From: a virus
Reading direction: 5' to 3' (one strand)
Virus genome (UHGV): UHGV-0041136
DNA length: 45,168 bases
Both the position numbers and the translations under genes were made by a program. This document shows, piece after piece, positions 4,980-42,199 of the stretch (its first letter is position 1; each line of letters opens with the position of its first letter). Under the pieces are notes generated by a model. It was not told where the DNA came from, ran no database searches, and saw nothing but the letters and a program-made list of their open reading frames with translations.

Positions 4980-5117
4980 CCACCCCCATCATTACTTCAC
5001 AGTTATCACCGTCGCACGCCGAAGTGCTGCGACTTGTTTCATAGGCGTCAACCAGTTCACCTAAAGTAAATTCACAATAGCTGTTCACTCTGTCTCTCCT
5101 CTCGTTTGAGTAAATGA

Positions 5118-5274: not shown

Positions 5275-5288
5275 AATAGTAACCTATT
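5275..5288. promoter_or_regulatory. additional AATAG-N4-CTATT operator-like site
   Basis: AATAGtaacCTATT followed by TTGACC; between the DUF551 gene end and the terminator. Confidence 0.3.
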
Positions 5289-5306: not shown

Positions 5307-5504
5307 TTACACCAGCGATGGCGGCTCTGGTAACGGCATCCAGTGGGTAACATCGTCACTACTGATATTCGAGTTACGCGGCGCCCAACAATCCCAGAAG
5401 CCATCGCAATCCCGCCACATCACCTCAACGTTACCCCCATCCGAAACCAGCACATCTTCAAATTCTTCCGGCATCCGTTCACTACACTCAATCCACTTAC
5501 CCAT
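5307..5504 (-). CDS. DUF551-like small protein, copy 1
   Basis: MGKWIECSERMPEE...VTHWMPLPEPPSLV; WMPLPEPP C-terminus as I recall for DUF551 phage proteins. Confidence 0.5.
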   Translation of the reverse strand: MGKWIECSERMPEEFEDVLVSDGGNVEVMWRDCDGFWDCWAPRNSNISSDDVTHWMPLPEPPSLV

Positions 5505-5514
5505 ATCTCACCCC

Positions 5515-5700
5515 TTATTCATCACACTTCAGAGACTCAGGTAACGGCATCCAGTGTGTTACGCCAACACACTTAACGTATCCATCACAAACAAAGTCAC
5601 CGATGTATCTTGCTATAAAGCCATACCCGGCGCGGGCATAAACAATTACGTCCTCACCCTCTTCCGGCATCCGTTCACTACACTCAATCCACTTACCCAT
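5515..5700 (-). CDS. DUF551-like small protein, copy 2 (tandem paralog)
   Basis: MGKWIECSERMPEEGEDV...VTHWMPLPESLKCDE; identical first 14 residues and shared C-terminal motif with 5307..5504. Confidence 0.5.
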   Translation of the reverse strand: MGKWIECSERMPEEGEDVIVYARAGYGFIARYIGDFVCDGYVKCVGVTHWMPLPESLKCDE

Positions 5701-5850
5701 AAATCACCTCTGATTCGCGATAAACAACACACCAGCTTTCCACGCCCGCCACGCGAGACGCGTCTTAACGTTCAGGTACTCTTTCTTCGAACCCTTGTTA
5801 ACCGGCAGACCCTCGACGACGGCCCACCGTTCAAATGCTTCTCTCATAAC

Positions 5851-13414: not shown

Positions 13415-13570
13415 ATGTTTTTCTGTAAGCACGTTTACCGCTATATGAAACCGCTTCCGTGGTATGCAGATGAGTACCGGGCTGGGTACAGGCATGTGTG
13501 GATTTGCCGTGATTGTATGAAAATAAGATTAAGCGAAACGAAGGCACTGGATTTAAGGAAAAAGAAATGA
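13415..13570 (+). CDS. small Cys/His-containing protein (51 aa)
   Basis: ATG 13415 with AGGGG SD; FFCKH...WICRDC; stop overlaps polymerase ATG. Confidence 0.35.
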   Translation: MFFCKHVYRYMKPLPWYADEYRAGYRHVWICRDCMKIRLSETKALDLRKKK

Positions 13571-15768
13571 GCTACTTATACCTGGACTTTGAAACATTCT
13601 CCGAAGCCGATTTAAAGAAAGTCGGCTCCTACGCTTACGCCGAACACCCGTCAACCGAAGTGCTTATCTGCACATATGCTTTTGACGACGAGCCTGTGCG
13701 GGTATGGGATTGCACCGACGGCAGCGACATGCCAGGTGATTTACACCGCGCGCTACGCCGTCTGGTTAAACCGAACAGCCGCATCAAGATGGTATGGCAC
13801 AACGGCTCAATGTTCGATAGGTTAATCATGAAGCACTGCTGGGGTTTTGACATCCCGGTAAGCAACACCATTGATACGATGATTTGGGCGTTTCGCCACG
13901 CGCTGCCGGGTTCACTTGATGCATTGTGCGAAGTGCTGGGTGTATCTGCGGACAATGCAAAAGATAAACGCGGCAAGGCGCTGATTCAGCGTTTTTCTAA
14001 ACCGACACCGAAGAACTACAAAATTCGCCGCTATACCGCCGAAACGCACCCGGACGAGTGGGCGCTGTTCATCAAGTACGCCGTCAGCGACATCACCGCA
14101 ATGCGTGAAGTCTTCCATAAGCTACCACGTTGGGGTAACTCCGAGTTCGAGGACCTGGTACTGGAACTGGACCAGTTAATCAACGACCGAGGGTTTAAGG
14201 TTGACGTCGCACTGGCGGAAGCCGCGATTGAAGCCGTAGAGAAGCACAAGACACAGTTACAGGAAGAAGCCCAACGCAAATACGGCGGCTCGCTTACGGG
14301 TAAGGACTTTCTGCCGATTCTGCGTGAACTTGCGCCAGCGCACCGAATCCACAACGCGCAGAAGTCGACGCTAAATGACCTGTTGGCGGATGATGATTTA
14401 CCGGGCGACGCACGCACGATTATCGAAATGCGCCTCGGGGCCGCGTCCACAGCGTCAACGAAATATAACCCGCTTCTGTTGGGCCGCTCGTCTGACGACC
14501 GCCGTCGTGGTTGCTTGCAGTACGGCGGGGCAAAACGCACTCTGCGATGGGCGGGTAAAGGCTTTCAGCCGCAGAACCTGGCGCGCGGTTACTATCACGA
14601 TGATGAACTGGATAAAGGCATTTCAGCGTTACTTAAGGGTCGAGCTCATCGCCGTTTTGATGTAGCCAAGCTAACGGCATCGACGGTTCGTAGCTGCATC
14701 ATTCCGGAAGCAGGGCATAAGTTTGTCGTCGCCGATTACTCGAACGTTGAAGGCCGGGGGCTTGCGTGGCTGGCTGGTGAAGAAACCGCGCTCGATACTT
14801 TCCGCGCTGGACTGGATATTTACTGTGTAACCGCGGGTAAGATGTTCGGCATGGACCCTGACGATATTAAGAAAAACTTCAAGGAAATCAGACAGATAGG
14901 TAAGGCATGCGAACTGGGCCTCGGCTATGAGGGGGGCGTCGGAGCGTTCGTTACGTTCGCTAAAAACTTAGGTCTTGACCTTATCGAGATGGCAAAAACA
15001 ATGGACGGTACATTCCCTGACCACATCTGGGCCGCTACCGCACGTGGGTATGAGTGGGCGCGTATTCAGGAAGCCAAGCGACCGCCGCATCCCGGTGAAA
15101 AGGATGACCGACCGTCATATATTCTGGACAAGAAAGTGTGGCGTACTTGTGACGCTATCAAGCGTATGTGGCGCGAGGCACACCCTGAAACAGTAGCGTT
15201 CTGGCGCGACCTTAAAGACGGAATTTTAGCTGCTGTTCGTAATCCTGGTCGTGAATTTTGGGCGGGGGCACACTTGCGCAGGAATGGGGAAAGGGCCATC
15301 CGCATATGGCGTACTGTTGAATTTGATTCGTCCGGTAGGAAGGTTCCCGGTTGGTGGTTGTGTATGGAGTTGCCGTCGGGTCGTATCCTCTCGTATCCGG
15401 GAATCGGGGTTAGTGTGACAAAGGAAACAGATGAAGACGGACGGGTGAACACAAATGTGCGAATCAAGTATCAAGGCGAAAACCAGTTAACCCGCCAATG
15501 GACTACCCTGTACACACACGGCGGCAAAGCCTGTGAAAACCTGGTCCAGGCACTGTGTCGTGATTTACTTGCGTATGCGATGATTAACGTTGAGCGGGGT
15601 GGGTATCCTATCGTACTTTCGGTACACGATGAACTGGTATGTGAAACTCCAGACACACCTGAGTACACGGTGTCTGAACTGGAAAAATTAATGTGTGAGT
15701 TGCCAGAGTGGGCGGAGGGTTTTCCTCTTGTAGCAGAAGGGGCGGAGATGAAGCGTTATGCTAAGTAA
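13567..15768 (+). CDS. DNA polymerase, family A, with 3'-5' exonuclease domain
   Basis: ATG 13567; exo motif LDFETFS; motif A VVADYSNVEGR; motif B KKNFKEIRQIGKACELGLGYEGG; motif C LSVHDELVCE. Confidence 0.9.
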   Translation: MSYLYLDFETFSEADLKKVGSYAYAEHPSTEVLICTYAFDDEPVRVWDCTDGSDMPGDLHRALRRLVKPNSRIKMVWHNGSMFDRLIMKHCWGFDIPVSNTIDTMIWAFRHALPGSLDALCEVLGVSADNAKDKRGKALIQRFSKPTPKNYKIRRYTAETHPDEWALFIKYAVSDITAMREVFHKLPRWGNSEFEDLVLELDQLINDRGFKVDVALAEAAIEAVEKHKTQLQEEAQRKYGGSLTGKDFLPILRELAPAHRIHNAQKSTLNDLLADDDLPGDARTIIEMRLGAASTASTKYNPLLLGRSSDDRRRGCLQYGGAKRTLRWAGKGFQPQNLARGYYHDDELDKGISALLKGRAHRRFDVAKLTASTVRSCIIPEAGHKFVVADYSNVEGRGLAWLAGEETALDTFRAGLDIYCVTAGKMFGMDPDDIKKNFKEIRQIGKACELGLGYEGGVGAFVTFAKNLGLDLIEMAKTMDGTFPDHIWAATARGYEWARIQEAKRPPHPGEKDDRPSYILDKKVWRTCDAIKRMWREAHPETVAFWRDLKDGILAAVRNPGREFWAGAHLRRNGERAIRIWRTVEFDSSGRKVPGWWLCMELPSGRILSYPGIGVSVTKETDEDGRVNTNVRIKYQGENQLTRQWTTLYTHGGKACENLVQALCRDLLAYAMINVERGGYPIVLSVHDELVCETPDTPEYTVSELEKLMCELPEWAEGFPLVAEGAEMKRYAK

Positions 15769-26372: not shown

Positions 26373-26869
26373 TGCATCGGATCCCAAATTCGTGGAAACG
26401 TTGATTGTGCGGTTCCATAGGCTTTAAGCAAACAGCCCAGCCCATCACCATAACAGCCATACAAATCTGGCAGATTATTAATCAGGCACTGGTTCTCAAG
26501 GTCCTGGAACGGCGATTTCTCAGCGGTTGCCGTGAAAGTGATTGTCCAGTTAATGCCGTCTTCGGTGGACTCCGCGATGGTGGACGTGATGGTTACCTGA
26601 TAATCCTCGATACCCATGCCGAAGTCGTGCGCCATCCAGAAACTTGACGCACCACCATCGACTTTTTCGAGGAACGACAGAAACGCCTGCCGCCCCAGCG
26701 ACGATGTAATCAGGGTTACACTTATCGGGAACACGTCGTAATACGTGTCACGCCCCTGGCGCACCCCACCACCTGCTAAATCGACGCTCCAGACGTTGTT
26801 GCGTCTGGTCATTGAGTAGCCTTTTGACACCACCGGCTTAAGGCTACGTGGGAAGTATAAGTCAGTCAT
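26369..26869 (-). CDS. minor tail protein (gpM-like position)
   Basis: ATG 26869 overlaps tape-measure stop; synteny. Confidence 0.4.
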   Translation of the reverse strand: MTDLYFPRSLKPVVSKGYSMTRRNNVWSVDLAGGGVRQGRDTYYDVFPISVTLITSSLGRQAFLSFLEKVDGGASSFWMAHDFGMGIEDYQVTITSTIAESTEDGINWTITFTATAEKSPFQDLENQCLINNLPDLYGCYGDGLGCLLKAYGTAQSTFPRIWDPMQ

Positions 26870-29181
26870 TATTTGAACCCCGGCGCATTTCTTGTGGCCT
26901 TGCGGGCCTTGCTAATCTTACTGTTGCTGTTCTGCAAAGATGCCGCCACTTGCTCTTCGATGATGATACGCAAACGGCCTTCATCATCCTGCTCAGTGGA
27001 TACGTGGCCAATCTGACTCGATGTGTTATTTACAATGGTAACATTAGACGGACCGGAAGAAGACCCGTTTTGCCCCATAATTTCTTTCATCTGCTGTGCG
27101 GTGCGCACACGCGACGCGCCAGCTGGCATGATAACTTCTGGTTTACCGCGTTCAGCGATGGTGGAAGCCTGCCCCGCGGATAACTGACCGCCCTGTTCGC
27201 GTGCGGACCTGATAGCGGAAACCTGCGCCATACCTGCTCCAACGGCAGCAGCAGCGGCTACGGGAGCCAGGAACGGACCAACTACAGGGATAGCAGCCGT
27301 TGACTTGTACGCCTCAATAGCCGCGGTGTATGTGGCGATAGTGGCCTGCACGATAGCGAATGCCTTATACGCACCAGAAGCCTCGCCCAATGCGGATCCG
27401 ATGTTTGAAGCCATATTACCAAAGGCCGTTGCCGTTGCGTCAGCCCGCTTGGTTGCGTATTGCTCATTGATAGCGTTAAGTGCCGCCTGATACTGTTCCT
27501 CGTTAATAAGCCCCTGTTCTCGATACTTATCGGCGACAGCCAGTTTCTGCTGTTCCTGGATGTCGAGAAGCTCAAGCTCAGTAGCGTTCTGGCCCATAAT
27601 CTGAGCCATGAAGTCATCACCTTTCTGCTGCTTTTCCTGCCGGTCTTTCTCTCGCTTATCCAGCTCTTCCTGTCTGGCCTGCTCAGCTGTGAGCATAATT
27701 TGAGTTTTGGCGTTTTCGTACTGCTGCTGGCTTATAGTTCCGGCGCGGTTGAACTCTTCAAGTTTCGCCAGTTTCTGCTCTTCTGCCGCCGTGATGCGAG
27801 AAATTTCATCCCCCGTTGTGCGGTCGACAGTAGCCAGGAAATCTTCGGCGGCTTTCTTCTGACGTTGCGCCGCCGTTTCTTCGCGTTTGGCTTGTGCCGC
27901 CAGGCGTTTCTCGTTCGATTTAGCCTCACGGTCTGCCTTCTCTTTTTCTGCCTTGTCGATGCGAGCGATGTCTTGCTGTGCTTCCGTGTCGCGGGCGGCG
28001 TTATATGCGGCTATCTGTTCTTTGGTGACAGCTTCACGTTTAGCGAACGCCTGCTTATCCAGTTCAGCTTGCGCCCGGATGCGCTCACGGTCACTTAAGA
28101 TGGCGATTTGCTGATTCTTGACGATAGCTTCGTTCTGTTCCTGGAATCTCTGCGTGGTTGAGTTGACGTTACGGCCGAGATTCTTTTGGGCCTCCGCCGC
28201 TGCGTTTGCGGACTTCTCCGCGTTCTCCAGTGCTGTGGCGTTCTTGTTGGCGTTGTCTGTCAGGCGGATAAGTTCCGGGTTCAACTGTTTTGTGTTACCG
28301 AGCCAGTCGGTAAACACATCGGCGATGCGACGGGCATTCTCAGCGGTTGGCTCTTTGTTAAACGCGCTCTGCGCCGCTATCATCTCCAGCGCCTGGTCAC
28401 GGTTAACCCCGAACTTATTGCTAAGCTCTGCGATATTCTGCGCCAGCATGTTGACGCCTACGATGTTGCCCTCGTAAGTGCCTCCGAGTTTTTCTAATGT
28501 GTCACCTACATCTGCACCCTTAGACACCAGTGCATCATACTGGCTAATCGCCGATGCCGTGGAGGCTTTCCACGTTTCCCATGATTCTGCGTCTTCTCGC
28601 ACGGCTTTAGCTGTTTGCTGGGCGATAAGGTCCGCGTTAGCCTTAGCCAAAGCAAGCTGCGTCTCTGCGGCCTCCCGGCTGATTTGGGTAAGCTGGATAA
28701 GGCCGTCTGTCAGTTCGAGAGAGCCGGACGCCGTTTGCTGGAAGGTGTCCTTTAACTGTTTCTGTGCGGCTTCGAGGTCTTTTGAACTGCCTTCTGCTTC
28801 GGTTAGTGATTTGTACAGGACGCCGCCAACAGCTGATGCAAGAGCAATTACAGCCCCAAGCACCGCGCCGCCAGGGCCGAAAGCACCCGCAAGCTGTGAA
28901 CCTTGTTGCCCGATTGCCACGAATGCGGACGTGCCGGATTGCAGCTGGACTACCATGTCCTGCACCTGGAAGCCAACCTGCCCAGCGGCGTTACGGAACT
29001 TAGCGAAACCATCAGAGGCCGCTTTAGACGTAGCGGAGTTTACTTTATTAACATCAGGAGTCAGCTTGTTTACTGCGGTATCCGCACGGTCTGCAGACGA
29101 CGCCATAGCGTCAAGCTGTTTGGCAGCTACGTCAGCACCTTCTGTTTTTACTCTGGCAATTAGGGAAGCCGTATCAGCCAT
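26869..29181 (-). CDS. tail tape measure protein
   Basis: 770 aa, Ala/Gln/Glu-rich coiled coil, follows G/GT chaperone pair; ATG 29181 with GAGGG SD (track begins at TTG 29196). Confidence 0.8.
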   Translation of the reverse strand: MADTASLIARVKTEGADVAAKQLDAMASSADRADTAVNKLTPDVNKVNSATSKAASDGFAKFRNAAGQVGFQVQDMVVQLQSGTSAFVAIGQQGSQLAGAFGPGGAVLGAVIALASAVGGVLYKSLTEAEGSSKDLEAAQKQLKDTFQQTASGSLELTDGLIQLTQISREAAETQLALAKANADLIAQQTAKAVREDAESWETWKASTASAISQYDALVSKGADVGDTLEKLGGTYEGNIVGVNMLAQNIAELSNKFGVNRDQALEMIAAQSAFNKEPTAENARRIADVFTDWLGNTKQLNPELIRLTDNANKNATALENAEKSANAAAEAQKNLGRNVNSTTQRFQEQNEAIVKNQQIAILSDRERIRAQAELDKQAFAKREAVTKEQIAAYNAARDTEAQQDIARIDKAEKEKADREAKSNEKRLAAQAKREETAAQRQKKAAEDFLATVDRTTGDEISRITAAEEQKLAKLEEFNRAGTISQQQYENAKTQIMLTAEQARQEELDKREKDRQEKQQKGDDFMAQIMGQNATELELLDIQEQQKLAVADKYREQGLINEEQYQAALNAINEQYATKRADATATAFGNMASNIGSALGEASGAYKAFAIVQATIATYTAAIEAYKSTAAIPVVGPFLAPVAAAAAVGAGMAQVSAIRSAREQGGQLSAGQASTIAERGKPEVIMPAGASRVRTAQQMKEIMGQNGSSSGPSNVTIVNNTSSQIGHVSTEQDDEGRLRIIIEEQVAASLQNSNSKISKARKATRNAPGFK

Positions 29182-29545
29182 CTTCTCTGCCCTCAAATAT
29201 TCCGTCTAAGCCCATGATAACCTCGGCTTCGAACAAACTTATGCCGTAACCGGCGACATCACGAAACGCTACCAAATCTTGCCATTTGAGCGCATCGCGC
29301 GGGATTATAACGATAGTATCATCTGTTTCGCGCTGTAGGAATTTAATGGCACGGTATTTCTCGAACACGTCGATAAGAGAAACGGGGCATTCTGGCCCCG
29401 TCGCTTCTTTCATCTGCGGTTCTTTAATCACACCCATTGCGACCAAAGCTGCTTGATGCCCCGCCGCGATGTCGTCGAATTGCTTACGTTTCTGGCGGTC
29501 GACAAAGCACCATTGCGCAAATTCATACAGCGCTTTTACTTTTCC
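29174..29545 (-). CDS. T segment of tail assembly chaperone GT (reached by -1 frameshift from G)
   Basis: -1 frame relative to G is open from GGAAAAG (29545..29539) to stop at 29174. Confidence 0.4.
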   Translation of the reverse strand, partial: GKVKALYEFAQWCFVDRQKRKQFDDIAAGHQAALVAMGVIKEPQMKEATGPECPVSLIDVFEKYRAIKFLQRETDDTIVIIPRDALKWQDLVAFRDVAGYGISLFEAEVIMGLDGIFEGREDG

Positions 29546-29952
29546 GAGAGTTTCTCACGGCTATCGGTGTGGTGTTTAACTACGGCTTCTGCCAGCCCGC
29601 TGTACTGGTCGAACAGGTTAGCCAGCGCCTCTTTGCTGAACGGTTCGTCGAATGACCAACCGGTGACGATTTCCACGGCAAGCTGCTTGTTAAGGTCCAT
29701 CACCCGCCAGCCCTTCTCGTCATTATAGCGCGCCCAGTTATTCAGCGCCTCGCACTCTTTATCTAATGGCGCGAGTTCTTCCGTAAGGCGTCGAATTGCC
29801 GTTGTGTAGGCGCGGCCTGCTCGAACGCCAGCATCGCAGTCTGGGCCAATGACTTGCAACCATTCGCCGGAGTCTTTACCACTCGGCAGAAGGATAGGCA
29901 TTTTAGTGCCGGCAGCGTGGCGGTCCGCAAAATAAAAATCAGAAAGTTTCAT
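29536..29952 (-). CDS. tail assembly chaperone (gpG-like)
   Basis: 138-aa ORF immediately upstream of tape measure; ends at slippery-like GGAAAAG-UAA. Confidence 0.5.
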   Translation of the reverse strand: MKLSDFYFADRHAAGTKMPILLPSGKDSGEWLQVIGPDCDAGVRAGRAYTTAIRRLTEELAPLDKECEALNNWARYNDEKGWRVMDLNKQLAVEIVTGWSFDEPFSKEALANLFDQYSGLAEAVVKHHTDSREKLSEK

Positions 29953-30059
29953 TCTTTAATCCTTTGGTTAAGAGGTTACAGGTTAAGGAAAATGCGCCAG
30001 ACGGGAACCACCCGCTTTTCGTGTGCGACACTAGGCGCAAACTTATTCTAGCACACTAC

Positions 30060-30089
30060 TTGCACACCCCAATATAATAGGGTACTATT
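30060..30089 (+). promoter_or_regulatory. conserved promoter element, plus strand (-35 TTGCAC, 17 bp, -10 TACTAT) with AATAGggtaCTATT
   Basis: cTTGCACaccccaatatAATAGggTACTATTcac, 28 nt upstream of ATG 30117. Confidence 0.5.
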
Positions 30090-30116
30090 CACCTGTAACT
30101 TACTGAGGAAATAATT

Positions 30117-30443
30117 ATGCGTAAATTAGTATTAGCTCTGGGGTTTATGTCTTTTGCTACTTTTGGGTCCCCGTGCGAACAGGTATTTAGTGAATCTGTT
30201 CTTATGGCTTCTGGTGCGCTTGAGAAAGCCGACCCTACTATTGTAAAGGCATTTAAGGACTCTACAGTTCGCGAGTGTGAGGCCGCCGTAGATGTCGGTA
30301 AATCGGGCCTACCCCCGCAAGCCGTAACATACACGGTAGTACGTTCGGTAGAGCAAAACGGAGACGCGTTTTATAGCCTACTGACAGCCACCCGTCTGCA
30401 AATGGTGATGACTGGATGGGCGATAGGCGCGGAAAGTAAATAG
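30117..30443 (+). CDS. secreted small protein (signal peptide)
   Basis: MRKLVLALGFMSFATFGSP... cleavable signal-like N-terminus; first gene of cassette A. Confidence 0.55.
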   Translation: MRKLVLALGFMSFATFGSPCEQVFSESVLMASGALEKADPTIVKAFKDSTVRECEAAVDVGKSGLPPQAVTYTVVRSVEQNGDAFYSLLTATRLQMVMTGWAIGAESK

Positions 30444-30507
30444 TCGCCTTTATTTAAAGGAATCCACTGTGGTTAAATAGGACAAATCCTAAGCACGAGG
30501 AATAAGC

Positions 30508-31638
30508 ATGGCCCGGAAGAAAATAACCGACGAACAGTTGCAGGAAGAATTGAACGCCGGTATGAAGAATATCGACATCGCCCGTAAATACGGCATCTCA
30601 GACCGCGTAATTCGCATCCGTAAAGCGAAGCTGGCTAAGAAAGGCGTAGGCCACGGGCGCGACGTCAGCCACCTTGTGCCAGATGGCTACAAGATTAAAG
30701 GAACGTCGTCCCTGGTGGACGAGTTTGGCAACACTAAGTTGCAATGGGTTAAGACTGACACCGATGCTGAACGTCAGGTCGAGTTGATGAAAGCCGTAAT
30801 TGAAGGCATGAAGTCAGAGATTACCCCCGTTGCGCCTGTTAAAGCGACTCGAGCCAAACGTGACGATAAACTGCTCAATCTTTACACTGTATCTGATTTC
30901 CATCTCGGTATGCTGGCATGGGCCGACGAGAGCGGCGACGACTGGGACATGAAGATTGCGGAAGACCTGTTCTCTCGATGGTTCGACGCTGCGTTTCAGA
31001 AGGCACCAGACGCCGGGACAGGGGTTATTAACCTGCTGGGCGACCTTGCGCACTTCGATAGTCTGGACGCGGTTACCCCCGCAAGTGGTCACGTTCTTGA
31101 CGCCGATACCCGCTACCAGAAACTTGTCCGCTACATGATTCGCATGGTCCGTCGTGTTGTTGATATGGCCCTTGTTAAGCATAAAAATGTTCGCTTGCTT
31201 ATTGTGCAAGGTAACCACGACGAGAGTGGCATGATTTGGTTGGCTGAGATGTTCAGTACGCTATACGACAACGAGCCGCGTGTGTTTGTCGATACGTCGC
31301 CGGATGTTTACAAAATGGTGCAACACGGCAAAACGACGCTGTTCTTTACACACGGGCATAAATGCCGGTTTGAGGTGGTCGAACCCATTATGATAGCTAA
31401 GTTCAGAAAAGCATTTGGCGAAAGCGAGTACAGTTACGCACATGTCGGGCATCTCCACCACCAAAAGATTGTAGAAAGTAGGAATATGGTGGTGGAGCAG
31501 CATCGCACTCTCGCGGCGAAAGATGCATATGCTTCTCGCGGCGGGTGGATGTCTAAGAGGTCCGCTAATGTCATAACCTATAGTTCAGAGTTCGGGGAAG
31601 TAGGTAGGCTTTCAATCTCACCGGAGATGCTAAGATGA
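30508..31638 (+). CDS. HTH-domain protein fused to calcineurin-like metallophosphoesterase
   Basis: N-terminal NIDIARKYGISDRVIRIRKAKL (HTH-like); MPP motifs VSDFHLG (DxH), GDLAHFD (GDxxD), GNHDE, FTHGH, GHLHH in canonical order. Confidence 0.7.
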   Translation: MARKKITDEQLQEELNAGMKNIDIARKYGISDRVIRIRKAKLAKKGVGHGRDVSHLVPDGYKIKGTSSLVDEFGNTKLQWVKTDTDAERQVELMKAVIEGMKSEITPVAPVKATRAKRDDKLLNLYTVSDFHLGMLAWADESGDDWDMKIAEDLFSRWFDAAFQKAPDAGTGVINLLGDLAHFDSLDAVTPASGHVLDADTRYQKLVRYMIRMVRRVVDMALVKHKNVRLLIVQGNHDESGMIWLAEMFSTLYDNEPRVFVDTSPDVYKMVQHGKTTLFFTHGHKCRFEVVEPIMIAKFRKAFGESEYSYAHVGHLHHQKIVESRNMVVEQHRTLAAKDAYASRGGWMSKRSANVITYSSEFGEVGRLSISPEMLR

Positions 31639-31865
31639 CTTCAAAATACAACCGAACAATGACAAATATTCACGGCAGCACTATGACGGTAGACGTTTAT
31701 GATGTGCTGCGTGCCTTCGATATCCGCGACCCGGCGTTACAGCACGCATTGAAGAAACTATTGTGTATGGGCCTTCGCGGACACAAAGACACAGGAACCG
31801 ACTTAGCAGAAGCAATTGAAAGTTTGGAGAAGTTACGGGAGTATAGAAGCAATATTGATGAGTAA
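31635..31865 (+). CDS. hypothetical small protein translationally coupled to the phosphoesterase
   Basis: ATGA overlap at 31635..31638. Confidence 0.45.
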   Translation: MTSKYNRTMTNIHGSTMTVDVYDVLRAFDIRDPALQHALKKLLCMGLRGHKDTGTDLAEAIESLEKLREYRSNIDE

Positions 31866-31869
31866 GAAA

Positions 31870-31889
31870 AAGGCCCCGAAAGGGGCCTT
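31870..31889 (+). other. stem-loop AAGGCCCC-gaaa-GGGGCCTT (GNRA loop) without T tract
   Basis: between 31865 and HNH gene. Confidence 0.35.
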
Positions 31890-31908
31890 ATCGCGATAGG
31901 AGATAATT

Positions 31909-32397
31909 ATGGATTGGAATGAATTTTTCATATACGACTTAATTTCAGGAAGGATATTTAACAGAGTAACACGGTCCGGGAGGGCTAAGGCTGGAGAGGA
32001 GGCGGGTACTATACAGCGAGACGGATATAGAAGGATATTTTTCAGAGGCAAATGGCACGCGGCGCACCGTATAGCATGGGACTTAAACAATCCTAACGAT
32101 AAGCTAACGTCGTCAGATCAAATAGACCATCTAGACCATAACCGAATAAACAATAGACCGCTTAACTTAGCTAAAAAGTCCAATGCGGAAAACCATAAAA
32201 ATATGTCAAAACAGCGTAATAATAAATCAGGAGTAACTGGGGTTTACTGGAATGCAAAAGAAAGGTTGTGGTATGCACAGATATTCAACAATAACGTAAA
32301 AACGCATATAGGGTGCTTTAAGACGCTACTAGATGCAGTTGCCGCGAGGAGAGTTGCTGAAAGAGATTTGGGGTTCCACAATAACCACGGCAAATAG
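31909..32397 (+). CDS. HNH homing endonuclease with AP2-type DNA-binding domain
   Basis: HNH core GKWHAAHRIAW...IDHLDHNRINNRPLNL...NH; C-terminal GVTGVYWNAKERLWYAQIFNNNVKTHIGCFKTLLDA resembles AP2; AT-rich codon usage. Confidence 0.7.
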   Translation: MDWNEFFIYDLISGRIFNRVTRSGRAKAGEEAGTIQRDGYRRIFFRGKWHAAHRIAWDLNNPNDKLTSSDQIDHLDHNRINNRPLNLAKKSNAENHKNMSKQRNNKSGVTGVYWNAKERLWYAQIFNNNVKTHIGCFKTLLDAVAARRVAERDLGFHNNHGK

Positions 32398-32399
32398 TA

Positions 32400-32425
32400 A
32401 GGCCCCGTTATGGGGCCTTTTTCTT
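32400..32425. terminator. bidirectional terminator AGGCCCC-gttat-GGGGCCT + T-run
   Basis: ends cassette A on plus strand and follows the major tail gene stop on minus strand. Confidence 0.55.
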
Positions 32426-33593
32426 ACGCGTAACTAATCCGCTGTATTACAATAGAGGATTGATATTGATTGCCTGTGGACTGTCCTTCTATGCTTTGAG
32501 TGATTGACTCAGGCCCCCCGATCTCTGGTGTAACCGCTGTGAGTTCCGCGCGTTTCAGACTGAAAGACATAGCCCCGTTTACCCCCGCCAGAATAGAGTT
32601 AATCTCTACCTGCTGTTCGTTGATAAACTTCTGAATCATCGCCATGTCGTACAGCTTACCAGAGATAGAGAAGGTGTTGGCCGCGCGACCACGTTCCACG
32701 AACGCCACGCTACTGTTGCCAAGTTCGAACTGCGCGGAAGCACCGTTGTCGTTGGTGATGGTCAGGCTATCGCAACGCAACGGGGTTGCGCCGTCGAACA
32801 CGGAAACGTCAACCGAAGAGAACGGCTCGTCGCCAAACGTGACAGAGGAGAAATCAGAACCAGACGGCGGCGCGGTAAGAATTTCCTGGCTCAGACCGAT
32901 GAACGGGAAGCTGCCGGTTACCATAGCGTTTACGGCCTGCTCGATGGTGAAACCGGAGATTTCCACGCCTTTGGTCAACATGTACGCGTCCGGGTTCCCG
33001 CACTGCCCTTTGAACCATGTCAGGATGGAGAACGTCTTACACGCGTTACCGGTTTCCAGTTTATCGCCAGTTTTACCGTCGGTCTCGATAGGTCCTTCGG
33101 CGGTCAGGGTGTGTTGAATACCCGCACCCGTAACCACAGTAGCAGTTACTGCGGTAACGATGAACGGCTTAGAGTTATCACCGGTTAAAGCGTCAAAATA
33201 CAGAAGGTCCCCGACCTCTACGCCGTCAGTAATGAAGCTGCCGGTGGTGCGGGTAAAGGTTTTAGCCACAGGGTCTACCGTAATGCCAACAGCGGATAAG
33301 GTTACCCCATCCTGCCACGTAGACGTCATCGCGCCCGCGAGGAAATCATCCTGGCTACGGGAGCTAAGTTCGATGGCATACTCCCCGCTAACCTGCTTGT
33401 TACCGGTTCGGATGGATGTAGTTTCACGGCTGCCGTCCAGCTCGTTGGAAGTCAGCGCATCGCGGGTTACCGCAGGAACGCCGCCAGTGTTGCGCAACGG
33501 CGACCAGACCGGGTTACTTGGGGTTACGCCCGGGGTCACTTCCGCCACATAGAATTGCGCGGTATTCGCGCCCTTAAAAGGAGTTGTAGCCAT
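32424..33593 (-). CDS. major tail protein
   Basis: about 390 aa, T/S/G-rich, upstream of chaperone/TMP; ATG 33593 (track GTG 33599). Confidence 0.6.
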   Translation of the reverse strand: MATTPFKGANTAQFYVAEVTPGVTPSNPVWSPLRNTGGVPAVTRDALTSNELDGSRETTSIRTGNKQVSGEYAIELSSRSQDDFLAGAMTSTWQDGVTLSAVGITVDPVAKTFTRTTGSFITDGVEVGDLLYFDALTGDNSKPFIVTAVTATVVTGAGIQHTLTAEGPIETDGKTGDKLETGNACKTFSILTWFKGQCGNPDAYMLTKGVEISGFTIEQAVNAMVTGSFPFIGLSQEILTAPPSGSDFSSVTFGDEPFSSVDVSVFDGATPLRCDSLTITNDNGASAQFELGNSSVAFVERGRAANTFSISGKLYDMAMIQKFINEQQVEINSILAGVNGAMSFSLKRAELTAVTPEIGGPESITQSIEGQSTGNQYQSSIVIQRISYA

Positions 33594-33595
33594 AT

Positions 33596-34012
33596 TCACA
33601 GCCTCTTGGTGAATGCAATAAAGTTAATTGACAATGGTCGTTTGGCCCATCCGTTTTCTACAATCAGCGGCCCCAGGCTAACCGATTGAACCTCGGCGCA
33701 GATGTCGTTACGTGAAAATGACTTACCTGCTTTAAACGCCGTGTTAAGTAAGTCTGCCATTTTATTGATTGGCGCGCTACCTTTCACCGATGCGTAGTTA
33801 ATGTCGACCTGATAGACGCCAGCGCGTTGTTCCGTGAAGAACAAATCCGCTTGCTCGGTATCCGCAAGTAACATGTAACTTGCCAGATACGGCGTATCGG
33901 TTGACGTCGGTGCGTCGATATTTTCGAGCGCGACCTTGATGCCGTTGGCGGATCCGAAAGCTACCAGCGGCACGTCGAACGCTTTGGTTAAGTCCTCAAA
34001 GTAGCCCATCAT
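33596..34012 (-). CDS. tail terminator / tail completion protein candidate
   Basis: synteny immediately upstream of major tail gene. Confidence 0.4.
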   Translation of the reverse strand: MMGYFEDLTKAFDVPLVAFGSANGIKVALENIDAPTSTDTPYLASYMLLADTEQADLFFTEQRAGVYQVDINYASVKGSAPINKMADLLNTAFKAGKSFSRNDICAEVQSVSLGPLIVENGWAKRPLSINFIAFTKRL

Positions 34013-34404
34013 TTCACCTTGTTGGCTTCTTCGTTAATGAGTTGCTGGAAGCGGGACACATTCACTCGTACAAATCCTTGTGGTGCCTGTTGCGACCAAC
34101 CATACTCCAGTCGTTGTGCATACGGCAGATTATTTGTCAGCGTGAACTCGCGCCAGTCTGGGGCTTTCAGTACGAAACTTGTAGCGTTTCCGATTGCTAT
34201 GTTTCCTGATTTATCCGTAGCGTCTGTAGTTCCGGAGGCAGGAGTCCCCTCAGAGGCCATCCAGTTCATACGAAACCGACCAGTATCTACCGGACTCGCC
34301 TTTATAATAGCGGAAAACAGCTTGATAGACACCTGACGCATCACCGTCTCAGGGTTCTTCTTCGCCTTTTCCACGAACTTAGAGACATAAAGCGCGAAAC
34401 TCAT
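34009..34404 (-). CDS. head-tail connector protein, HK97 gp10-like
   Basis: motif SPVDTGRFRMNW; ATGA coupling. Confidence 0.45.
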   Translation of the reverse strand: MSFALYVSKFVEKAKKNPETVMRQVSIKLFSAIIKASPVDTGRFRMNWMASEGTPASGTTDATDKSGNIAIGNATSFVLKAPDWREFTLTNNLPYAQRLEYGWSQQAPQGFVRVNVSRFQQLINEEANKVK

Positions 34405-39163: not shown

Positions 39164-39215
39164 TTTGCAGACACCAATATAATAGGGTACTATTCAGTTA
39201 ACTTAAACAGGAGGT
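39164..39215 (+). repeat. 52-bp direct repeat, copy 1 (promoter + leader + SD of cassette B)
   Basis: identical by eye to 41828..41879. Confidence 0.6.
39165..39194 (+). promoter_or_regulatory. conserved promoter element (-35 TTGCAG, 17 bp, -10 TACTAT) with AATAGggtaCTATT
   Basis: TTGCAGacaccaatatAATAGggTACTATTcag then AGGAGG and ATG 39221. Confidence 0.5.
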
Positions 39216-39220
39216 AGTAT

Positions 39221-40033
39221 ATGCAACATGTGATCAGTTTTTCAGGCGGCAGGACATCAGCGTACACAACCCTTGAAGTGCTTAAACTTCACCCCGATGC
39301 TGAGGTCATCTATATGGACACCGGGGCGGAGCACCCCAAGACCTACGAGTTCATCCGCAATTTTGCTAAGCACTTTAATATTGCAGTGACGTGCCTCAGG
39401 GTTGTTCCTAACCCGGAGATGCGTAAGGCCAGCACCTATGAAGTCCTTAGCGTAGATGAAATAGGTCCTGACCTGGAGCCATGGCGCAGAATGCTGCGCA
39501 AGTACGGCCACCCATACGTCGGTGGCGCGTTCTGCACAGACCGGATGAAGACGGTGCCGTTCACCAAATACTGTGACGAGAAATACGGTAAAGGCAAATA
39601 CGACAGATGGCTTGGCATCCGCTGTGATGAACCTAAGCGCCTGGTAAACAGGAAAGAGGGGTTCCACTATCTTGCAGACATCAGCGACTTCGAAAAACAG
39701 GACATTATTGACTGGTGGGCAAACCAGGAATTTGACCTTGGTATAGAGGAGCACTTGGGTAACTGTGTTTTTTGTATTAAAAAGAGCCTACAAAAAGTAG
39801 CACTGGCCGCTAAGGATGAACCACAGTTGGCTGAACAATTTTGGGAAATGATTCAGGAAGAAGACATAAAGCGGGATAAGGTTATGTACCGGTCCAACAG
39901 AAGCCTCGGCGAGGTTATCGCGCTGTTCCGGGATGAGGGTAGGGGTGAGCTTGCGTCTCGTATGCGGTCAATGCGGCAGTACGACACAGGGTCATGTAGC
40001 GAAAGTTGTGAGGCGTTTGGGGGTGGCGAATGA
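39221..40033 (+). CDS. PAPS-reductase-like PP-loop ATP pyrophosphatase family protein
   Basis: PP-loop ISFSGGRTS at N-terminus, YMDTGAEHPKTYEF, GAFCTDRMKTVPF; Cys-rich C-terminus GNCVFC...GSCSESC. Confidence 0.65.
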   Translation: MQHVISFSGGRTSAYTTLEVLKLHPDAEVIYMDTGAEHPKTYEFIRNFAKHFNIAVTCLRVVPNPEMRKASTYEVLSVDEIGPDLEPWRRMLRKYGHPYVGGAFCTDRMKTVPFTKYCDEKYGKGKYDRWLGIRCDEPKRLVNRKEGFHYLADISDFEKQDIIDWWANQEFDLGIEEHLGNCVFCIKKSLQKVALAAKDEPQLAEQFWEMIQEEDIKRDKVMYRSNRSLGEVIALFRDEGRGELASRMRSMRQYDTGSCSESCEAFGGGE

Positions 40034-40251
40034 TTACCGAAAAGCACGACAATGGCTCCATTTCTATTGATACCAATGATGGAAGGCATTTCTTTGCCCA
40101 CTTCATTAATGGCTCGTACAACTTGATAGAGGTTGTATCTGGCGGTTGTGTGGGAATAGGCAGAATTAAAGACGAGGAAAACATTAATCGCATAATACTG
40201 AGATGGGTCGAGCTTAACAAAGAGGTTCCACTCGCAGAGCCACTTAAATAA
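40030..40251 (+). CDS. hypothetical small protein coupled to the PAPS-reductase-like gene
   Basis: ATGA overlap. Confidence 0.45.
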   Translation: MITEKHDNGSISIDTNDGRHFFAHFINGSYNLIEVVSGGCVGIGRIKDEENINRIILRWVELNKEVPLAEPLK

Positions 40252-40255
40252 AACT

Positions 40256-40280
40256 AAGGCCCCACTATGGGGCCTTTTAT
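40256..40280. terminator. bidirectional terminator AAGGCCCC-actat-GGGGCCTT + TTTT
   Basis: A-run on one side, T-run on the other; between convergent gene ends. Confidence 0.55.
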
Positions 40281-41827: not shown

Positions 41828-41879
41828 TTTGCAGACACCAATATAATAGGGTACTATTCAGTTAACTTAAACAGGAGGT
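41828..41879 (+). repeat. 52-bp direct repeat, copy 2 (promoter + leader + SD of cassette C)
   Basis: identical by eye to 39164..39215. Confidence 0.6.
41829..41858 (+). promoter_or_regulatory. conserved promoter element (-35 TTGCAG, 17 bp, -10 TACTAT) with AATAGggtaCTATT
   Basis: same sequence as 39165..39194; ATG 41885. Confidence 0.5.
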
Positions 41880-41884
41880 GAAAA

Positions 41885-42169
41885 ATGTCTCACAAATTTA
41901 AAGGTACGGACGGTGAATGGGTTAATCTCGGAACAGCTATCTGGGCGGGTGACGTTTATGTGGCGGAGGTAATGAGTATGCGGGAGAAGTCCTCAGTAAA
42001 ATTGGCTAACGCAAAACTTATCTCCTCGGCGCCTGAATTACTTGAAGCCCTTCGCCAGCTTCGCGATTACGTCGAGGATGTTTGCGCTGTATCTTCCGAT
42101 GATTGTCATGAGGATCACCCATTAAATCAGGCCAGCAGAGCAATCAAGAAAGCATTAGGAAAGCAATAA
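41885..42169 (+). CDS. hypothetical protein (cassette C cargo)
   Basis: single gene flanked by conserved promoter and bidirectional terminator. Confidence 0.5.
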   Translation: MSHKFKGTDGEWVNLGTAIWAGDVYVAEVMSMREKSSVKLANAKLISSAPELLEALRQLRDYVEDVCAVSSDDCHEDHPLNQASRAIKKALGKQ

Positions 42170-42173
42170 AACT

Positions 42174-42199
42174 AAGGCCCCTTTTGGGGCCTTTTCTTT
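42174..42199. terminator. bidirectional terminator AAGGCCCC-tttt-GGGGCCTT + T-run
   Basis: between stop 42169 (plus) and portal stop 42198 (minus). Confidence 0.55.

Follow-up and report, generated by a model that had tools for sequence, protein, structure and literature searches.

An opposite-strand gene island fixed in the tail operon of Guernseyvirinae phages, with a probable recent homing endonuclease insertion at its terminator

The virus genome UHGV-0041136, whose whole 45,168-nt length is referred to here as the window, belongs to a Kagunavirus-type Escherichia coli phage (Guernseyvirinae), and the best matches, at ~92% identity, are Escherichia phages 590B and NTEC3. Outside the region discussed here, PHROG annotation is consistent with a ~44-kb virulent siphophage that has its replication genes on the plus strand at ~7–19 kb; the minus strand at ~20–45 kb carries the genes for tail, head and packaging. 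The subject of this report is an island of four plus-strand genes that runs opposite to the structural genes, between the tail tube (major tail) gene (32424–33599, minus strand; Pfam Phage_tube_2, E=4.9e-36) and the gene for tail assembly chaperone G (TAC-G; 29536–29952, minus strand; Pfam Phage_TAC_4, E=1e-8; phrog_15027, E=1e-65). A preliminary description, made from the sequence alone, had placed four open reading frames (ORFs) in this interval, and the ORFs, their flanks and their coordinates are all as it gave them. Its interpretation of the four genes as a single inserted cassette does not survive comparison with related phages, which points instead to an old block carrying one new gene.

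From the chaperone side, the locus begins with an RNA element resembling the int-alpA motif (29977–30041, minus strand, with a 49-nt core at 29993–30041), detected by a near-threshold match to Rfam RF02996 and by covariation. It is followed by a promoter-like motif of what is termed class II below (30060–30091, plus strand), which is repeated in the window and kept in relatives. The first gene encodes SP108 (108 residues; 30117–30443), which matches phrog_14165, a family annotated as of unknown function, and occupies a position referred to as slot 1. The next two genes, both also on the plus strand, encode a helix-turn-helix (HTH) metallophosphoesterase of 376 residues (30508–31638; phrog_704, 'DNA repair exonuclease', E=1e-165) and the 76-residue protein o76 (31635–31865; phrog_2452, E=2.5e-36). 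Beyond o76 lies hairpin 1 (31870–31889), the stem of an ancestral bidirectional terminator, identified by folding on both strands and by a terminator scan on the minus strand only. Then comes a ~533-bp recent insertion unit (31891–32423, plus strand) made up of a ribosome-binding site (RBS), the gene HNH2 (162 residues; 31909–32397; Pfam HNH_3, E=5.5e-6; phrog_99, E=8e-49) and a second hairpin copy with a T-run (hairpin 2, 32399–32422, stem 32399–32419), which both the scan and folding mark as terminator-like on the plus strand. The last ~26 codons of the tail tube gene (32424–32500, minus strand) form a variant tract that allele comparison links to HNH2. None of the four island proteins matches defence-system models in PADLOC, except HNH2, which matches 'homing endonuclease' at E=5e-4.

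The region matches ~400 Guernseyvirinae records, from both Kagunavirus and Jerseyvirus. The comparison set consisted of seven annotated relatives and 72 IMG/VR loci found via the phosphoesterase, with ten reference proteins placed in each; 51 loci (50 and the window) are complete, and these span Kagunavirus, Jerseyvirus and more distant relatives. Every one of the 51 complete loci has the frame of TAC-G (minus), slot 1 (plus), phosphoesterase (plus), a variable part and tail tube (minus), with neither its location nor its orientation changed, and in none of them does the chaperone gene adjoin the tail tube gene as an empty site would require. The preliminary description had proposed that related genomes be compared for presence or absence of the block; the block is there in every complete locus, which is the outcome that it had itself named as contrary to its proposal. 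Because all 51 loci share the inverted frame, the cassette as a whole is neither recent nor HNH-mobilised, and the recent insertion is limited to the ~533 bp at 31891–32423. Variability is confined to three features: the occupant of slot 1, the choice between o76 and a phosphatase plus kinase-like pair, and sporadic HNH genes at two junctions. Among 50,697 phage genomes, records with the phosphoesterase number 2,039, those with o76 772, those with SP108 99 and those with HNH2 (at least 95% amino acid identity) five. It is probable that the island as a whole is an ancestral opposite-strand non-structural block of the Guernseyvirinae that has received one recent selfish insertion.

The same conclusion can be framed in terms of morons, which in the Juhala/Hendrix definition are independent add-on transcription units (summarised in PMC3594210). 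At the sequence level the island does have its own promoter and terminator, in the form of a repeated, conserved motif and a 3′ hairpin with a T-run. Its base composition also deviates, with a GC content of 41–51% and a third-position GC content (GC3) of 43–58%, versus 54% and 57–62% in the tail flanks, and within the island the difference is greatest for HNH2. Absence from relatives in which the flanks are adjacent, by contrast, is not found for the block and is found only for the 533-bp HNH unit. The island genes are already annotated in phage K1H, in the BASEL Kagunaviruses and in numerous further phages, and it is common for phage structural regions to harbour homing endonucleases. The block is ordinary, fixed phage architecture, of modest interest in its details, and nothing in it would overturn current understanding.

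The clearest of these details concern the HNH2 insertion. The protein scores above the gathering cut-off for Pfam HNH_3 (26.4 versus 24.8 bits), so the HNH part of the HNH-AP2 label given to it earlier stands. The AP2 part is consistent with that label and is a sub-threshold match (Pfam AP2, E=0.018, 15.8 bits versus a cut-off of 33.3); AP2 is also the best PDB sequence match (E=0.065), and the paralogue HNH1 matches AP2 at E=0.001. The earlier observation that the gene is AT-richer than its neighbours is confirmed, since its GC content of 41.5% and GC3 of 42.9% compare with 50.6% for the window and a GC3 of 57–68% for core genes, and place it in the 3rd percentile of windows of the same size. 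HNH2 is sporadic, being present in 6 of the 51 complete loci and in 2 of 34 loci in an unbiased IMG/VR sample. At 93–95% nucleotide identity, the unit occurs at the o76/tail tube junction only, in five phage records (four distinct phages) and two IMG/VR contigs. Its copies differ from one another at 17–19 synonymous versus 2–5 non-synonymous codons, which indicates purifying selection. The copy in locus L034 (L034:5593–6020) is cut to 141 residues by a frameshift near the C-terminal AP2-like domain and is probably decaying.

The boundaries of the 533-bp unit can be read from alignments, because it is absent from Bas75, K1H, 590B and most other loci. At the empty site, the o76 stop codon and the hairpin are followed by TTAG and then directly by TTTTATGCG, in which context TTA is the reverse complement of the tail tube stop codon. 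At the occupied site, which the window shares with five further loci, the sequence changes one base past the stem, and then come the RBS, the HNH ORF, a second hairpin and the junction at which TTTT(T/C)C meets TTACGCG. The insertion thus lies between the ancestral terminator stem and its plus-strand U-tract, and the second hairpin is a near-identical copy of the first. Hairpin 1 (−16.8 and −16.2 kcal/mol) has lost the plus-strand U-tract and kept the one on the minus strand, whereas hairpin 2 (−16.9 kcal/mol at 32399–32419, z=−2.9) carries its T-run on the plus strand. Given this placement, hairpin 1 would no longer terminate the plus strand, HNH2 would become the final gene of the island transcript, and hairpin 2 would restore plus-strand termination. 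A bidirectional terminator had been described at 32400–32425; the plus-strand half of that assignment holds, while the minus-strand tail there is only moderately U-rich and hairpin 1 is the stronger candidate on that strand. Late transcripts of the tail tube gene may accordingly run antisense across HNH2 before stopping at hairpin 1. Hairpin 1 and its equivalents in other loci (L005, L007, L009, L019 and L061) occur in two forms, with loops GAAA and TTTC, one being the reverse complement of the other; this gives the impression that the terminator hairpin was inverted, or swapped from strand to strand, in different phages.

The sequence next to the insertion point is linked to the presence of HNH2. 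The tract at 32424–32500 is 94–96% identical to the window in all five other HNH2 loci, versus at least 90% in only 4 of the 35 loci without HNH2, most of which fall at 74–80% with a few intermediate or unaligned; the following 200 bp are 88–94% identical in all loci. Over the last 27 codons and the stop (32424–32507), the two alleles differ at 20 nucleotides, amounting to 15 synonymous and 2 non-synonymous codon changes. Several loci are recombinant across the tract, with staggered breakpoints. In locus L061, which does not have HNH2, a single hairpin is joined directly to the HNH-type right junction, a configuration that would be the deletion footprint expected from recombination between the two hairpins. 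Taken together, these features suggest a cycle in which HNH2 would cleave the allele lacking it, close to the 3′ end of the tail tube gene, and be copied in by repair, dragging the ~77-bp synonymous variant tract along with it, and could be lost again via recombination between the two hairpins. Such a pattern is the signature to be expected of a free-standing homing endonuclease, and the earlier proposal that HNH2 is one agrees with its sporadic occurrence, its AT-richness and the linked flank polymorphism. The further suggestion that HNH2 may have mobilised adjacent DNA can be kept for the variant tract, which was plausibly carried along, and has to be dropped for the whole block, which is present in all 51 loci.

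The tract itself is probably a co-conversion tract or a cleavage-immune allele, on evidence that is correlative. Two considerations tell against this interpretation. The association (5 of 5 versus 4 of 35 loci) has a hand-computed Fisher p of ~2e-4, and such values overstate the support because the loci are not phylogenetically independent. In addition, the HNH2-linked allele (allele A) is present without HNH2 in four loci (L009, L014, L039 and L061); allele A either predates or outlives HNH2 and need not be cleavage-immune.

HNH2 is not the only sporadic gene at the island. A second HNH gene, whose product is 39% identical to HNH2, lies at the phosphoesterase/o76 junction in 590B, EC3-1 and Ro145c2YLVW; in Ro145c2YLVW it occurs together with HNH2. 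At its 3′ end (31250–31638), the phosphoesterase gene is 96–97% identical to the window in all three carriers and 70–88% identical in 37 other loci, giving a flank association of 3 of 3 carriers versus 0 of 37 non-carriers. The window has this second-HNH-linked phosphoesterase allele without the HNH gene itself, which may reflect precise loss or shared ancestry. At least two further HNH lineages are found at the same junction (L032, L033, L061 and L064). The phosphoesterase in L064 (L064:4001–5128) is a mosaic, with its first ~100 residues identical to the window and the rest ~61% identical, and it is followed by a distant HNH gene. In phage Jersey and several relatives (L036, L037, L065 and L031), a gene for a 203–238-residue Rha/KilAC antirepressor-like protein with Pfam Phage_pRha and ANT domains is present at the o76/tail tube junction. 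Because this gene replaces the HNH gene there in Jersey-type loci, the junction appears to be a general insertion hotspot. Elsewhere in the window, residues 463–559 of the DNA polymerase ORF (13513–15768) match the 'endonuclease' family phrog_93 (E=2e-15) and may represent an inserted nuclease domain or an intein-like element.

At the other end of the island, slot 1 is the part that is most readily exchanged among relatives. Its occupant is SP108 in 15 of the 51 loci, Imm63 in 32, a 97-residue protein in locus L033 and other secreted two-cysteine proteins in the remaining three. Imm63 is a 63-residue membrane protein; it matches Pfam Imm_superinfect (E=1e-18) and shares 51% identity with T4 Imm. 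The L033 protein is a membrane protein that resembles HK97 gp15 (pairwise E=2e-4), with a weak YebO match. A YebO-like gene was at first called in three loci; two of these calls were rejected as spurious ORFs across the conserved intergenic region, leaving L033 as the only real case.

SP108 itself has the N-terminal features of a signal-peptide protein, as noted before: an MRK N-terminus, a hydrophobic core that varies in sequence and is kept in character, and an A/G-x cleavage context. Its alignment contains two invariant cysteines and no lipobox, and these features would place it in the cell envelope. The AlphaFold model is all-helical, with five helices and a mean predicted local distance difference test score (pLDDT) of 77; a fold search in BFVD returns weak resemblance to small secreted or lipoprotein-type phage proteins only. 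Homologues of SP108 are confined to phage-sized contigs and to these phages. No match was found in Pfam, NCBIfam, PADLOC or among PHROG families with a function, and the depositor labels DUF3310 and DUF3718, applied to o76 and to an SP108 homologue, are not reproduced by Pfam. Compared by profile, SP108 and the remaining secreted occupants of slot 1 reach a probability of 6%, and both cysteines align.

Position provides the main clue to what SP108 does. The same slot and promoter hold an Imm_superinfect homologue in 32 loci and a gp15-like gene in one, and this positional equivalence favours the earlier suggestion that the first gene encodes a superinfection-exclusion factor. Slot 1 would then be a swap site for small envelope-targeted proteins, and SP108 would block genome entry of related phages at the envelope with a specificity matched to tape-measure type. 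On this positional argument SP108 is most likely an envelope-acting factor, an entry blocker matched to tape-measure type. Weighing against it, SP108 has no detectable homology to the characterised exclusion families (Imm, gp15/YebO, Cor, Llp and Sie) and no fold match in the PDB.

The match to tape-measure type is suggested by linkage. In the 12 other Kagunavirus loci with SP108, TAC-G, TAC-T and residues 1–400 of the tape measure are all 97–100% identical to the window, whereas in all 27 Imm63 loci they are 45–55% identical or unalignable; for TAC-G alone, the values are 99–100% in all SP108 Kagunavirus loci and 46–53% in all Imm63 loci. Linkage of the slot-1 occupant to the ~2.4 kb on its left is thus perfect, and the resulting haplotype (26869–29952 plus 30117–30443) exists in two very divergent forms, with no recombinants among the 39 Kagunavirus loci. 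Inside it, between slot 1 and the chaperone parts, lies a 162-bp stretch that is 94–100% conserved. The tail tube, the terminator protein, the phosphoesterase and the choice between o76 and a PNK-type module all assort freely with respect to slot 1, the PNK-type modules occurring in 6 of 15 SP108 loci and 11 of 32 Imm63 loci. A point against a functional match is that the linkage may be plain proximity: only ~160 bp of conserved sequence lies between the two parts, and recombinants are perhaps rare.

The phosphoesterase is the most widespread gene of the island. Its motifs D130-x-H132, G178-D179, G235-N-H-D238, H282/H284 and G314-H-x-H317 are invariant in ten sequences of down to 41% identity, and they comprise all five elements of the Mre11/SbcD type (DxH, GD, GNH(D/E), H and GHxH). 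The protein nevertheless scores below the Pfam gathering cut-offs for Metallophos_2 (25.2 versus 27 bits, E=2e-5) and Metallophos (19.5 versus 21.5 bits). Its HTH is indicated by a weak Pfam GerE match (E=0.003) and by a three-helix segment at residues 8–45, the only confident part of an AlphaFold model that is unusable overall (pLDDT 43.5). The name HTH-phosphoesterase given to it earlier can be retained on these grounds. Outside the subfamily the gene is co-oriented with its neighbours, standing before the lysis genes in a T1-like phage and between the lysis genes and terminase in Dhillonvirus. The same exonuclease is persistent in the Drexlerviridae, where it is found in 508 of 522 phages and the slot behind it varies, its contents being SH3, PNK plus deoxynucleoside monophosphate (dNMP) kinase, or HNH (PMC13164509). 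Additional homologue searches with the single sequence and with a ten-sequence profile returned only relatives of at least 94% identity.

In the 51 loci, the phosphoesterase gene is followed by o76 in 31, by a pair encoding a HAD-type phosphatase and a dNMP-kinase-like protein in 17, and by neither in three; the K1H pair matches phrog_415 and phrog_139. The o76 start codon overlaps the phosphoesterase stop codon (ATGA). The o76 protein matches only the C-terminal part of larger families, namely positions 150–220 of 235 in phrog_2452 and 172–237 of 246 in the 'ATPase' family phrog_17613. A pairing of the phosphoesterase with a small ORF across phage families was considered and rejected, as the small ORF in Dhillonvirus BF9 is not an o76 homologue. 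We infer that the HTH-metallophosphoesterase, translationally coupled to o76, would be a widely conserved nucleic-acid-processing enzyme; by analogy, its partnership with a phosphatase and a dNMP-kinase-like protein in other phages suggests DNA-end processing or nucleotide salvage. This assignment is weakened by PDB sequence and profile searches, which find no solved homologue, and any substrate named for the enzyme is a guess.

Transcription of the island would start at the motif upstream of SP108. It consists of TTGCAC (30060–30065), a 17-nt spacer and TACTAT (30083–30088), spans the palindrome AATAG-N4-CTATT (30076–30089) and is followed by a conserved ~25-nt leader and an RBS. The 29-nt motif at 30060–30088 occurs in four copies in the window at two or fewer mismatches, versus 0.00 expected, and a fifth, more diverged copy emerges on palindrome alignment. 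Relatives keep it with little or no change, even those in which the genes on both sides are replaced, and in Jerseyviruses it takes the form TTGCAT-17-TATTAT with the palindrome intact. The promoter motif placed at 30060–30089 in the preliminary description is in these respects a real sequence feature, with four copies where none is expected and near-invariance in relatives.

The palindrome ties this motif to others in the genome. It occurs nine times in the window (5117, 5275, 6467, 9936, 12639, 16384, 30076, 39181 and 41845), versus 0.05 expected, and is common to all promoter-like sites. Eight of the nine sites are promoter-like, three belonging to class I and five to class II; the copy at 5275 was assigned to neither class. 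Class I, TTGACA-18-TATAGT, lies upstream of rightward replication genes. Class II, TTGCAsAC-N8-AATAGGnTACTATTCA, has its five copies at 5117 and 6467 (minus strand) and at 30076, 39181 and 41845 (plus strand). The two minus-strand sites are at a leftward cluster of small ORFs at ~5–6.5 kb, and the other three head plus-strand islands in the minus-strand structural operon. The shared palindrome core suggests a common regulator-binding site. Island A, the one treated here, comprises SP108, the phosphoesterase, o76 and HNH2. Islands B and C, also on the plus strand, lie within minus-strand head genes: B (39221–40251, or 39165–40276 with motif and hairpin) encodes a PAPS-reductase-like protein of 270 residues and a 73-residue ORF, and C (41885–42169, or 41829–42194 with motif and hairpin) a 94-residue ORF matching phrog_1273. 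In all three the start codon is 56–57 nt from the motif and the island ends in one family of hairpins; B and C also have the leader of A.

As far as sequence can tell, there is a good case for a functional promoter class shared with early-looking genes, and the island would be transcribed from this phage-wide motif and probably expressed with early or accessory genes. Against such a promoter, a simple sigma-70 scan did not list the motif, whose −35 element TTGCAC agrees with the consensus at 3 of 6 positions, and what speaks for it is consensus and conservation. The one Kagunavirus time course found classes the Imm-like gene as 'late', on sampling over multiple cycles that is too coarse to help (PMC12645636). 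A minus-strand promoter-like site, GTTACA-17-TATATT (30099–30071), is present in SP108-type loci and is the only such site on that strand within 29953–32430. The notion that it forms part of a bidirectional promoter restarting the tail operon was rejected, because it is not conserved in Imm63 loci or in islands B and C. As regards the layout of the operon, the chaperone, tape-measure and distal tail genes come after two terminator hairpins and a 2.4-kb stretch of genes on the opposite strand. A separate repeat in the early-looking region, a 77-nt direct repeat at 5444–5520 and 5640–5716 (84% identity), belongs to two small paralogous ORFs and on the minus strand covers the RBS and first codons.

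Between the promoter and the TAC-G start codon lies the int-alpA-like RNA element, an unusually conserved stretch that was passed over in the preliminary description. A permissive Rfam scan gives a full-length match to RF02996 at 29977–30041 on the minus strand. The 48 Guernseyvirinae loci used for covariation analysis contain 13 distinct variants of the 49-nt core, without indels. In a three-helix structure, 93.8% of cells are paired and four pairs have changed on both sides; the covariation score of 0.26 compares with 0.11 for shuffles (0 of 500 reach 0.26), and slid registers score no more than 0.07. The G·U pairs point to the minus strand. When made into a covariance model, the 13 variants find one copy in the window and none in loci with the phosphoesterase in another context, and a pattern scan of IMG/VR finds the core in Guernseyvirinae-sized contigs only. 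In bacterial genomes the pattern scan alone is generic; with a covariance-model filter it yields ~20 full copies, mostly in Betaproteobacteria and Aeromonas. The five bacterial copies checked against Rfam's own model score 57–72 bits, and two of the five (L157 and L138) lie near a tmRNA or tRNA gene.

Phage and bacterial copies alike have, a few nucleotides downstream, a complement to the loop of the second hairpin; where the loop differs, so does its partner. The pairs are UGGUU/AACCA, UGGUCA/UGACCA and CGGUCU/AGACCG in phages and CCUUCA/UGAAGG, CCCUG/CAGGG and AGCCU/AGGCU in bacteria, and the longest loop complement averages 5.5 nt, versus 3.8 nt for shuffled and 3.9 nt for cross-paired loops. 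The phage AACCA directly abuts the Shine-Dalgarno sequence of the chaperone gene, and the bacterial partner is often the Shine-Dalgarno sequence itself. A pseudoknot between the loop and the AACCA preceding the Shine-Dalgarno sequence is probable, and through it the RNA would probably tune chaperone translation beside the RBS. The element can be described as a putative divergent int-alpA variant acting in cis on downstream translation. Two findings run counter to its membership of the family. Its score of 33.5 bits falls short of the gathering score of 35.8 bits (no family's threshold in Rfam is reached anywhere in the window), and the integrative element with an integrase or alpA gene nearby that marks int-alpA is not found around it. 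Because it is below the score threshold and without the usual context, the RNA is not filed here as an int-alpA member.

Each of these interpretations has competitors. One would make the four genes a single mobile, moron-like cassette inserted inverted into the tail operon, possibly mobilised by the HNH gene. It would explain why the island has its own promoter-like motif and terminator, a GC content below that of the flanking tail genes and a homing endonuclease, and the other contexts of the phosphoesterase in Dhillonvirus and Drexlerviridae imply that the module did move at some ancient time. Within the subfamily, however, it is contradicted by the frame common to all 51 complete loci with no empty site, by the absence of HNH2 from 45 of them with the remainder of the island retained, by the four HNH lineages that occupy two junctions independently of the other genes, and by the delimitation of the recent insertion to ~533 bp; we judge it very improbable. 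To the idea that HNH2 is a domesticated nuclease needed by the phage, as a packaging or replication accessory comparable to terminase-associated HNH proteins, we give hardly any credence. The intact ORF, the purifying selection in five of the six copies and the predicted co-transcription with a nucleic-acid enzyme would suit such a role; a needed gene would not be missing from ~90% of close relatives that include viable isolates, and HNH2 is moreover not beside the terminase genes, truncated in one copy (L034), AT-rich relative to the genome and matched by an equally patchy paralogue at another junction.

The 77-bp tract could, alternatively, be a product of ordinary mosaic recombination that is HNH-linked by proximity and is neither homing target nor co-conversion tract. 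The group is mosaic everywhere (the gene at 34009–34404 varies between 49 and 95%, and the middle of the tail tube gene has variable patches), HNH2-carrying loci may share recent ancestry, and allele A does occur without HNH2. We nonetheless consider this account unlikely: the tract starts exactly at the insertion point and ends within ~80 bp, in front of 200 bp that are uniform; it is almost purely synonymous, at about twice the local substitution density; its breakpoints are staggered as co-conversion ends are; the other HNH gene shows the same pattern on its upstream flank at the other junction; and L061 is accounted for as HNH loss. For SP108, a periplasmic protein with a role other than exclusion, such as envelope or lysis timing, debris protection or the countering of a host envelope defence, is a possibility with some substance that we hold, on balance, to be rather unlikely. 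SP108 lacks homology to known exclusion families and an informative fold match, it is secreted, unlike the membrane-embedded Imm and gp15, and relatives hold other secreted two-cysteine proteins without an assigned function in slot 1. Yet most relatives have a T4 Imm homologue in this slot, behind the same promoter and leader, and one has a gp15-like gene there, and the tight linkage of the occupant to the tape-measure/chaperone haplotype is what would be expected of a protein matched to the injection machinery. A joint proposal, in which slot 1 is a tape-measure-matched swap site for entry blockers and int-alpA is a portable loop-to-RBS translational regulator recruited by the Guernseyvirinae, is best treated as doubtful.

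If that proposal were true, SP108 would represent a new class of secreted injection blockers, the tape measure N-terminus, chaperones and slot 1 would form a co-adapted unit, and int-alpA would have been recruited to set tail-chaperone output after the island interrupts the operon. An exchangeable envelope-protein slot that tracks the tape-measure haplotype is directly testable with the public BASEL phages Bas70–76, and the RNA element offers a first hint at the function of the orphan int-alpA motif. The loci provide a clean natural series in which a homing endonuclease is gained and lost at a terminator, with an empty site, an occupied site, occupation of both sites, a truncated copy and a deletion footprint. 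To our knowledge, the placement between stem and U-tract, with a duplicated hairpin and a footprint of hairpin-mediated loss, has not been described, although no exhaustive search was made.

Several known systems resemble parts of the island. HK97 gp15 is the founding moron, located between the chaperone and tape-measure genes, and it causes a tail-dependent block to injection (PMC3594210). Like it, slot 1 holds a small envelope-protein gene among siphophage chaperone and tape-measure genes, and the L033 slot even contains a gp15/YebO-like protein. The HK97 gene has its own terminator, and its effect depends on the tail of the incoming phage. It is co-oriented with the tail genes in the chaperone/tape-measure interval of a temperate phage and expressed from the prophage. 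Slot 1, in contrast, is on the opposite strand in the chaperone/tail tube interval of a virulent phage and belongs to a larger conserved island, and SP108 is secreted and unrelated in sequence. T4 Imm (PF14373) is a small envelope protein with which a virulent phage keeps superinfecting phages from injecting their DNA. Slot 1 contains a true homologue in 32 of the 51 loci, while the window has SP108 in Imm's stead, without homology between the two.

The RNA element shares with int-alpA (RF02996) the three-helix layout, nearly all conserved nucleotides and a loop complement next to the RBS. It differs in having shorter loops and in lying in a tail-chaperone leader of virulent phages, whereas int-alpA is usually found near integrase or alpA genes, in integrative islands beside tRNA or tmRNA genes. 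In the Drexlerviridae, a core gene of the same phosphoesterase family precedes a variable slot (PNK plus dNMP kinase, or HNH). There the exonuclease gene is co-oriented and upstream of the lysis cassette, while that of the window is inverted in the tail operon and its common partner is o76 instead of SH3. Finally, HNH2 is like the free-standing HNH homing endonucleases of phages in its HNH_3 domain, putative AP2-like C-terminus, intergenic site, patchy distribution, AT-richness and linked flank polymorphism.

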